Sequence record: PV523736.1
From: Enterococcus phage ZJGS3
Strand: one strand, 5' to 3'
DNA length: 64,000 nucleotides
The notes beneath the pieces are model-generated. The model saw only the letters and a program-made list of their open reading frames with translations. It was not told where the DNA came from and ran no database searches. A program made the translations under genes and the position numbers. This document shows positions 813 to 1,160 of the stretch, one piece after another (positions within the stretch are counted from its first letter, which is position 1; each line of letters begins with the position of its first letter).

Positions 813-1160
813 TGGAGTAGACGGGACTCGAACCCGTGTCCTAACGTAGAACCATACAAAATTCTACGGGCGTAGTTACTAGTTTTAATCTACGTTAAGG
901 TTACAACTAATAACTGAAATTACCTTAACTGAGTGGTAAAGCCTCTCCTGAGTTATCCACTTTTACCTCAGCGTTGTCGGTTAATGAGTCCTCTAGGTAG
1001 AACCGACCCTAGTCTAGAGGGGTAAGTGTGTAGCTAGTCTAAAACTAGGCTACAGCTAATAATTCTTCGTTTTTAGCAGTTATATTTACTGCGATGATTA
1101 AGTCATCACTCTGCCCGCTATTCATATATTTCTTACGCCAGTCGAAACCAAAACTACCCC
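813..1160 (-). ncRNA. ssrA: tmRNA (ssrA-like transfer-messenger RNA), phage-encoded. Tag reading frame at 1045-1077 encodes (A)AKNEELLAVA-stop.
   Basis: 5' end GGGGTAGTTTTGGTTTCGACTGGCG matches the tmRNA 5' consensus GGGGnnGnTTnnGGnTTCGACnGG. 3' end GGACACGGGTTCGAGTCCCGTCTACTCCA has the tRNA-like T-arm and an acceptor pairing with the 5' GGGGTAG (one G.U pair). Internal ...GTAAATATAACT GCT AAA AAC GAA GAA TTA TTA GCT GTA GCC TAG... gives a resume codon after the ATATAACT motif (as in Bacillus tmRNA) and an Ala-rich degron-like tag ending LAVA. Pseudoknot-like inverted repeats lie downstream (for example cctctag...ctagagg). Confidence 0.8.

Follow-up and report, generated by a model that had tools for sequence, protein, structure and literature searches.

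A complete transfer-messenger RNA gene with a LAVA-ending tag in the tRNA array of Enterococcus phage ZJGS3

A transfer-messenger RNA (tmRNA) encoded by a phage raises the question of whether it only boosts ribosome recycling or also alters the fate of truncated proteins. The question was addressed here for Enterococcus phage ZJGS3 (sequence record PV523736.1), of which a stretch of 64,000 nucleotides, hereafter the window, was analyzed. An earlier reading of this DNA (the original prediction) had placed a complete tmRNA (ssrA) gene of about 348 nt on the minus strand at positions 813-1160, inside a tRNA array, and had described a peptide tag ending in LAVA instead of ALAA. The gene was confirmed to be a complete phage-encoded tmRNA. 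It is likely to be a working accessory tmRNA of one piece, belonging to the translation-support island (the tRNA array) of the genus Schiekvirus, using the SmpB protein of the host and adding a tag that is probably still a protease signal. Previously undescribed are the divergence of the tag from that of the host at residues read by ClpX, the invariance of the tag across the genus, and the finding that no part of the gene is more constrained than its message region. The phages EFDG1, iF6 and other members of Schiekvirus are leading therapy candidates against vancomycin-resistant enterococci, and the role of their accessory RNAs therefore matters.

Identification and anatomy of the tmRNA gene

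The program ARAGORN called a tmRNA of 348 nt at 813-1160 on the minus strand, with the coding part at nucleotides 84-116 and the tag AKNEELLAVA*. The Rfam model RF00023 (gathering score 47 bits) matched positions 810-1160 of the same strand at 145.1 bits (E 6.2e-57), and the match ran from model position 1 to 374, which is the full model. The two calls agreed on a complete minus-strand gene inside a tRNA array, as had been proposed; the array has at least 20 tRNA genes. A check with a covariance model and ARAGORN had been suggested in the original prediction, and it returned a significant RF00023 match together with 5' and 3' ends that form a tRNA-like domain.

The secondary structure was written explicitly, pseudoknots (PK) included, from complementary segments, and every stem was found to be fully complementary in the window copy. 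The central region produced by RNAalifold was rejected in favor of this structure, being a minimum-free-energy artefact that mixed pseudoknot strands. The elements of the gene are given below by window position and strand, with nucleotide numbers within the RNA in brackets. Pairing is expressed over the pair cells of 12 distinct alleles: that of the window, ten from phages in GenBank, and one from the IMG/VR contig L089, a metagenomic relative at a greater distance that also carries the gene.

813..1160, minus strand: complete one-piece tmRNA (ssrA) gene of 348 nt, called by ARAGORN and RF00023, CCA not encoded
1154..1160, minus strand: acceptor stem, 5' strand GGGGUAG (nt 1-7), 7/7 pairs, including G3 of the G3.U70 alanine identity pair
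813..820, minus strand: acceptor stem, 3' strand CUACUCC (nt 341-347), and discriminator A73 (at 813), from the ARAGORN bracket structure
821..837, minus strand: T-arm ACGGG-UUCGAGU-CCCGU (stem nt 324-328/336-340), 2/5 pairs with compensated changes
1113..1140, minus strand: helix 2, 5' strand (nt 21-48), four segments (2a-2d) with 24 pairs in total, paired in 99.5-100% of cells
842..871, minus strand: helix 2, 3' strand (nt 290-319), pairing with 1113..1140
1091..1109, minus strand: hairpin at the PK1 position, GUGAUGA-CUUAA-UCAUCGC (nt 52-70; stem 52-58/64-70), invariant in all alleles
1066..1088, minus strand: context of the resume codon and beginning of the tag, TAAATATAACTGCTAAAAACGAA, the same in chromosomal tmRNAs of Enterococcus and Vagococcus
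1045..1077, minus strand: tag open reading frame (ORF) GCU AAA AAC GAA GAA UUA UUA GCU GUA GCC UAG, encoding AKNEELLAVA*, from ARAGORN
1029..1054, minus strand: helix 5 (nt 107-118/122-132), 11 pairs, 100% of cells paired
976..1020, minus strand: PK2 (141-147/165-171, CCUCUAG/CUAGAGG; 154-160/179-185, GUCGGUU/AACCGAC), one compensated pair in stem 2, GC to AU
932..971, minus strand: PK3 (190-194/209-213, CUGAG/CUCAG; 200-204/225-229, AGUGG/CCACU), paired in every cell, with a single change from G-C to G.U
874..929, minus strand: PK4 (232-239/260-267, GUUAAGGU/ACCUUAAC; 246-256/277-287, AGUUAUUAGUU/AACUAGUAACU), four compensated pairs, mostly from L089

The ARAGORN structure of the tRNA-like domain consists of a 7-bp acceptor stem and a T-arm with a GUUCGA-type loop, and it has no anticodon arm. 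Both ends of the molecule bear out what had been proposed for them: the 5' consensus, GGGGTAGTTTTGGTTTCGACTGGCG, was read at 1160-1136, and the tRNA-like 3' end comprises the T-arm ACGGG-TTCGAGT-CCCGT and the 7-bp acceptor with G3.U70 and discriminator A. The 3' end itself reads ...CUCCA and is followed by uag in the genome, so that no CCA is encoded. The missing CCA was considered as a phage-specific trait and rejected, since host Enterococcus ssrA likewise lacks an encoded CCA.

The tRNA-like domain is connected by helix 2 to the mRNA-like domain. Here, the tag ORF GCT AAA AAC GAA GAA TTA TTA GCT GTA GCC TAG was found at 1077-1045, exactly as predicted. Its resume codon, GCU (1077-1075), is preceded by UAAAUAUAACU, the same as in host tmRNAs, and its final codons and UAG stop are enclosed by helix 5. 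The inverted repeats that had been described as pseudoknot-like turned out to be three canonical H-type pseudoknots, PK2-PK4, whose six stems of 5-11 bp are paired in 98.8-100% of cells and include five compensated pairs. At the PK1 site only the 7-bp hairpin was present, and no convincing second PK1 stem was found there by manual search or by RNAfold. A PK1 upstream of the resume codon is typical of tmRNAs, not defining, and reduced pseudoknots are known in accepted tmRNAs. All sequence and structural traits of a one-piece tmRNA that were looked for were present except the PK1 pseudoknot and an Ala-Ala terminus, both of them typical and non-defining.

Conservation among phages and relation to host ssrA

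Over its first 20,000 positions (1-20000), the window showed 99.7% identity to ZJGS4 and EA1, and for EFDG1, EfV12-phi1, iF6 and others the identity was 97-99%. These relatives are Enterococcus phages of the family Herelleviridae, subfamily Brockvirinae, genus Schiekvirus, and the window is EFDG1-like. When 601 nt around the tmRNA were compared by blastn with a phage collection, 31 phage records matched, all of Enterococcus phages. The same locus was recovered in 28 of the 31, with identities of 95.5-100% over 80% or more of the query; these 28 Schiekvirus records come from many countries and hosts. The copies in EFDG1, EfV12-phi1, iF6, 113, vB_OCPT_Bop, Bill and CCS1, and vB_Edu_21C1 share the array position, the length of 348 nt and the tag, at 95.5-100% identity. 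Their alleles include compensated variants, the window allele being of the type with a GGGGUAG/CUACUCC acceptor and an ACGGG/CCCGU T-stem.

The existence of the gene is already known from GenBank annotations, from the iF6 paper and from a survey table; the tag and the anatomy were previously undiscussed. It is annotated as ssrA or tmRNA in Bop and Bill (ssrA), CCS1, iF6, 113 and vB_Edu_21C1, while many records leave it unannotated, including that of ZJGS4, whose gene is 100% identical. The iF6 paper mentions '1 predicted tmRNA gene' and nothing further (PMC10054541), and EFDG1 and EfV12-phi1 appear in a supplementary list of phages with one-piece tmRNAs (Buchholz et al. 2022; PMC9004378). The peptide string AKNEELLAVA did not occur in the literature searched. 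The statement that tmRNA genes are rare in phages holds: a 2021 census reported them in 402/18,146 phage genomes (2.3%), 133 of them unique, and the Enterococcus phages named above were among the carriers.

Over the 12 alleles, standard pairs occupied 99.7% of 1164 pair cells, compared with 33-44% when the partners were slid by 1-3 columns. Nine pairs were changed on both sides, a count reached in 0/500 shuffles, and these compensated pairs are located in the acceptor stem, the T-stem, stem 2 of PK2 and both stems of PK4; much of the pseudoknot covariation is contributed by L089 alone. The acceptor stem and T-arm were paired in 100% of cells and hold four of the compensated pairs. Acceptor pair 5 occurs as CG, UA or AU and pair 6 as UA or AU, and the T-stem changes are AU/GC and CG/GC. 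The G3.U70 pair was present in 12/12 alleles, and A73 was likewise invariant. A pattern of this kind reads as the signature of an RNA whose function selection maintains.

The message core (nt 49-132), which comprises the PK1 hairpin, the resume context, the ORF and helix 5, was the most conserved part of the gene. Only 2/84 of its columns were variable, compared with 61/267 elsewhere (Fisher p = 2.5e-6), and for the tag ORF taken alone the figures were 1/33 and 62/318 (p = 0.016). The tag peptide was the same in 15/15 alleles, the sole substitution in the ORF being a synonymous TTA to CTA change in EfV12-phi1. Even L089, which differs from the window copy in 49 columns, departs from it within columns 34-157 at column 128 only (helix 5, G-C to G.U). 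So frozen a message core would be unexpected in a decoy that acts on SmpB alone or in a decaying relic.

The phage gene was also compared with chromosomal ssrA genes. The 19-mer TATAACTGCTAAAAACGAA, taken from around the resume codon, matched 82 genome stretches, nearly all of Enterococcus, Vagococcus and neighboring genera, at tmRNA genes. It lies within an exact block of 23 nt, TAAATATAACTGCTAAAAACGAA, which the phage gene has in common with Enterococcus and Vagococcus ssrA and which takes in the resume context together with codons one to four of the tag. The original prediction had likened this context to that of Bacillus ssrA; the identity shown here is to Enterococcus and Vagococcus. The phage and cellular genes are both one-piece, with G3.U70 and A73, an AKNE tag start, helix 5 and PK2-PK4. 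Over the whole gene the relationship is distant, with only ~66% identity in global alignment, or ~34% divergence from any host copy. The phage gene is ~13-17 nt shorter overall and its tag two residues shorter. Whereas host PK1 is canonical, with P3 (CGUAG/CUACG) and P4, the phage gene keeps a P4-like hairpin that is 7 nt shorter.

The host tags were AKNENNTFALAA in E. faecalis and many others, AKNENNSYALAA in E. lactis, E. mundtii, E. durans and more, and close variants of these. Every cellular tag retrieved from Enterococcaceae, Vagococcus and related bacteria ends in ALAA. An alignment of the phage tag with those of host ssrA, as had been suggested at the outset, showed a common AKNE start and different ends, and the divergent C terminus that was described from the window is therefore real: LAVA in the phage, ALAA in the hosts. 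In terms of codons, the end of the phage ORF, TTA GCT GTA GCC TAG, looks like the host ending TTA GCT GCC TAA plus an extra GTA codon.

These comparisons suggest that the gene was captured long ago from an Enterococcaceae-like lineage and has since evolved independently for a long time, with the decoding-critical segment frozen. Host contamination or misassembly was rejected, since 28 independent phage genomes have the gene at this locus and its identity to host ssrA is only ~66%. A prophage attachment-site remnant (attP/attB) of ssrA would be expected to consist of a 3' ssrA fragment only, near-identical to the host and with an integrase adjacent. Such a remnant was also rejected, as the gene is full-length, ~66% identical to the host and located in a virulent Herelleviridae genome.

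Two observations concern the wider set of host-type tmRNAs. Six IMG/VR contigs of ~37-40 kb (L088, L090, L091 and L096-L098) carry a host-type tmRNA with the tag AKNENNSFALAA; by their size, these contigs are taken to be prophages, which fits temperate phages integrated at ssrA and is distinct from the gene of the virulent phages. In about a dozen Enterococcus species (L005, L016, L017, L019, L027, L029 and others), ARAGORN picks a downstream resume codon and reports truncated tags, ENSYALAA or ENNYALAA, where the DNA reads GCT AAA AAC GAA AAC ..., that is, AKNENSYALAA. Tag lists from ARAGORN are unreliable because the resume codon is misplaced in those loci.

Proposed role of the tmRNA and fate of its tag

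The alanine identity elements, the host-identical resume context, the conserved message core and the compensated helices favor a working rescue RNA. The partner protein SmpB was sought by tblastn with the E. coli sequence as query, which was judged sound on the strength of 100% matches to prophage-edge records of E. coli. No SmpB match was present in the window, and none was found in Schiekvirus genomes in the phage collection, where the search returned 2 Enterococcus records only (the one listed being Efs 1-1-1) against 28 tmRNA-bearing Schiekvirus records. With no phage SmpB found, tmRNA biology implies that SmpB, AlaRS, EF-Tu and the maturation enzymes of the host would be needed. On the host side, smpB was not adjacent to ssrA in the 8-kb Enterococcus loci that were fetched.

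The structure, the identity elements, the resume context, the conservation of the ORF and the SmpB result form the basis of the following scheme, in which co-transcription with the array, RNA processing, alanine charging, entry into the ribosome and the fate of the tag are drawn from anatomy and tmRNA biology. The tmRNA would be co-transcribed with the tRNA array and matured like the neighboring tRNAs, with RNase P acting at the 5' end and host enzymes trimming the 3' end and adding CCA. Host AlaRS would charge it with alanine by way of G3.U70 and A73, and host SmpB and EF-Tu would bring the charged molecule to stalled, non-stop ribosomes. Translation would then restart at GCU (1077-1075), add (A)AKNEELLAVA and stop at UAG, and the ribosome would be freed. 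The likely benefit to the phage is extra or guaranteed ribosome rescue in lytic growth, as host transcription fails and broken mRNAs build up.

Concerning transcription, a promoter scan of positions 1-9000 gave 26 promoter-like matches, compared with 24.1 expected, which is the level of chance, and none was sensibly placed upstream of the tmRNA. A terminator-like hairpin lies at 1391-1372, after tRNA-Leu(tag).

The fate of the tagged protein turns on the last residues of the tag, which are read by ClpX. Relative to host ALAA, the penultimate Ala is replaced by Val and the antepenultimate Leu by Ala, and the C-terminal Ala-Ala that is typical of ClpXP-targeted tags is replaced by Leu-Ala-Val-Ala. 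For E. coli ClpXP, mutation of the last two Ala residues raises the Michaelis constant (KM) with little effect on Vmax, and an altered antepenultimate Leu raises KM modestly, as summarized by Fei et al. (2020). The tag AANDENYALVA on LacI gave a half-life of ~13 min in E. coli at 37 °C, compared with ~8 min for the ...LAA form (PMC3511798). These half-lives indicate that a Val-Ala terminus is compatible with efficient degradation; hence, 'non-canonical' is a correct description of the phage tag, and 'non-degron' would go beyond the evidence. Like other tags, that of the phage starts with polar residues and finishes in a hydrophobic stretch with a terminal Ala, and it is most likely still a protease signal. 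Its affinity for ClpX is probably altered, and weaker than that of host ...ALAA. The most defensible prediction is that AKNEELLAVA would be a somewhat weaker degron and not an inert one. If it is true that the gene provides accessory rescue with an ordinary degron, which is judged most likely, then the finding is a routine one.

Several points weigh against a working accessory tmRNA with a degradable tag. The Schiekvirus isolate EFP01 is viable without the gene, Rfam finding no tmRNA there; PK1, as a rule the pseudoknot that matters most, survives only as a hairpin; and the Rfam score of 145 bits is well under the 209-221 bits of host tmRNAs. Apart from L089, the alleles are close relatives with 95-100% identity, which limits the depth of the conservation statistics, and the estimate of degron strength is extrapolated from ClpXP of E. 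coli to Enterococcus. Finally, a literature search for expression, charging or tagging data on the phage tmRNA found none. In EFP01, the downstream flank is retained and the tmRNA is replaced by unrelated DNA with a tRNA and a transposase gene. The neighboring tRNA block was found in the same set of genomes as the tmRNA. The viability of EFP01, a natural relative without the tmRNA, indicates that any benefit is conditional and that the gene, near-universal in the genus, is not essential.

An alternative that is considered unlikely is that the tmRNA works and that selection favored the LAVA ending because it evades or retunes recognition by ClpXP, so that truncated proteins are released undegraded or sent to another protease or adaptor; competition with the host tmRNA for SmpB would then partly rewire host protein quality control. 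It draws on the difference between the phage tag and all retrieved Enterococcaceae tags, which end in ALAA, at the ClpX-critical last residues, on the fixation of that difference in 15/15 alleles, and on the raised KM that is reported, in the summary cited above, for mutation of the last two Ala residues. The ending, which resembles host TTA GCT GCC with a GTA codon added, may be read the same way, and host SmpB must be shared. Against this, the LVA tag, with its -VA terminus, remains an efficient degron in E. coli, the phage tag keeps a terminal Ala, a free carboxylate and a hydrophobic character, and it has no linked phage adaptor or protease. Pairing in helix 5 also constrains the last codons, so that part of the conservation of the tag could be structural. 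It seems doubtful that the LAVA ending, in form the host LAA with a Val placed before the final Ala, is an adaptation for separating ribosome rescue from ClpXP proteolysis by the host or for sending tagged chains to another fate, with SmpB competition reprogramming quality control. The idea, put forward in the original prediction, that the phage copy could redirect or sabotage host trans-translation is a conjecture.

It is very improbable that the RNA is a decoy or inhibitor that titrates SmpB (or AlaRS or EF-Tu) and stops host trans-translation without productive tagging. A precedent exists in mycobacteriophage DS6A, whose ssrA consists of the tRNA-like domain only and is a putative SmpB decoy, a similar molecule inhibiting tmRNA, perhaps through titration of SmpB. 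The reduced PK1, and a gene of the same tRNA-like-domain-only kind with the same 5' 20-mer in the IMG/VR contig L085, point in the same direction. The window gene has in common with that of DS6A a phage-borne, tmRNA-derived tRNA-like domain, but it also has a full mRNA-like domain with tag ORF, helix 5 and PK2-PK4, and on these grounds it was rejected as a member of the DS6A class. The mRNA-like domain is kept whole and is the most conserved region, the resume context is host-identical, the ORF is preserved and PK2-PK4 are upheld by compensatory changes. A pure SmpB sponge needs none of these, and the decoy reading is contradicted by them.

Scarcely credible, too, is the reading that a host gene was acquired along with the tRNAs and persists as a neutral passenger or a decaying relic without a role in infection. 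The viability of EFP01, an Rfam score below that of host copies and a 3' end that is a hotspot of mosaicism and homing-endonuclease insertion might speak for it. It is contradicted by helices that all still pair, with compensated changes, at ~34% divergence from any host tmRNA; in addition, the identity elements are invariant, the ORF is intact in all alleles and the gene is kept in 28 records.

Related phage tmRNAs and the surrounding tRNA array

Phage tmRNAs have been known since Bxz1, and eight mycobacteriophages, Bacillus phage G and the tRNA-like-domain-only ssrA of DS6A were covered by Hudson et al. (2014); huge phages carry both tmRNAs and SmpB. The mycobacteriophages of cluster C1 (Bxz1, Cali, Catera), Wildcat and Bacillus phage G resemble the present case in being large phages with many tRNA genes and a complete tmRNA. 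However, their hosts and sequences are unrelated, and blastn with the window locus gave Enterococcus phages only. The marine phage Melnitz and the pelagimyophages also carry a phage ssrA, for which maintenance of the hijacked translation machinery or tagging of host proteins has been proposed. Their genes are circularly permuted and in two pieces, some with a glutamine riboswitch, whereas the window gene is one-piece.

Further tmRNA-like genes were met in IMG/VR contigs. The gene in L085 (6025-6102, minus strand; IMGVR_UViG_3300024237_000070) is a tRNA-like-domain-only gene of 78 nt that matches RF00023 model positions 1-374 at 73.8 bits and is analogous to the ssrA of DS6A. Its 5' 20-mer is that of the window tmRNA, the whole mRNA-like domain is replaced by a hairpin of 8 bp, CCA is encoded, and tRNA-Tyr adjoins the gene. 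A second phage tmRNA lineage is present in the tRNA arrays of L086 (208-561, plus strand) and L087 (118-470, plus strand), contigs of 77 and 101 kb. These genes have an exact 5' 20-mer, GGGGTAGTTTTGGTTTCGAC, and a 3' segment, CTCTACTCCA, in common with the window gene; the rest is not alignable, and CCA is encoded. The tag that ARAGORN gives, GAPYAAKQLN, differs between the two, and the frame that is conserved across an upstream indel reads TDNDYFYSELKAA*. The tag of this lineage is probably ...DNDYFYSELKAA. A search for relatives of L086 and L087 among cultured phages gave no match.

The 3' end of the tmRNA gene is a mosaic boundary (window ~786-826), and in iF6, 163, CCS1 and Porthos the flank diverges 3 nt past the gene. 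In 113 (L001:1609-2331) and EfV12-phi1 (L100:407-1129), a free-standing gene for a homing endonuclease with GIY-YIG and NUMOD1 domains lies 5 nt past the tmRNA 3' end on the opposite strand, and the junction corresponds to window ~810-813. A group I intron within the tmRNA of these two phages was rejected despite the annotation 'group I intron endonuclease', since the GIY-YIG gene lies outside and the tmRNA is uninterrupted. The two phages have a variant tRNA-like domain, with a T-stem of GGGGG/CCCCC or AGGGG/CCCCU and a change of 'UAGGAC' to 'CAACAC' before the T-arm, and these endonuclease-linked alleles score 122-127 bits, compared with 145. The same variant occurs without the endonuclease in vB_Edu_21C1 (131 bits) and phiSHEF16. 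Such a distribution resembles what homing or co-conversion at this end of the tmRNA gene would leave behind.

The array in which the tmRNA lies, and three of its other elements, have the following positions.

166..7737, minus strand: tRNA array with at least 20 tRNAs, a ROOL RNA and the tmRNA (ARAGORN, Rfam)
3200-3295, minus strand: tRNA-like element of 96 nt (Rfam 33 bits)
6528-6601, minus strand: second tRNA-Met(CAT) (Rfam 43 bits)
6626-7212, minus strand: full-length ROOL RNA (RF03087, 260 bits, E 3e-58)

All 19 of the 19 tRNAs called by ARAGORN in the array are without an encoded 3' CCA, and T follows most of them. Close relatives differ in the insertions that their arrays contain: EFDG1, for instance, has an HNH endonuclease in the region of tRNA-His, and several phages are without tRNA-Leu(taa). 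The ROOL RNA, which lies between tRNA-Met(CAT) and tRNA-Ser(GCT), is unannotated in the ZJGS4 record. The 96-nt element, absent from the default ARAGORN run and from the ZJGS4 annotation, has a large insert between its anticodon-side and T arms. The second tRNA-Met(CAT), which default ARAGORN and the ZJGS4 annotation likewise miss, was called by ARAGORN at -ps90 and is possibly an initiator or a tRNA-Ile2.

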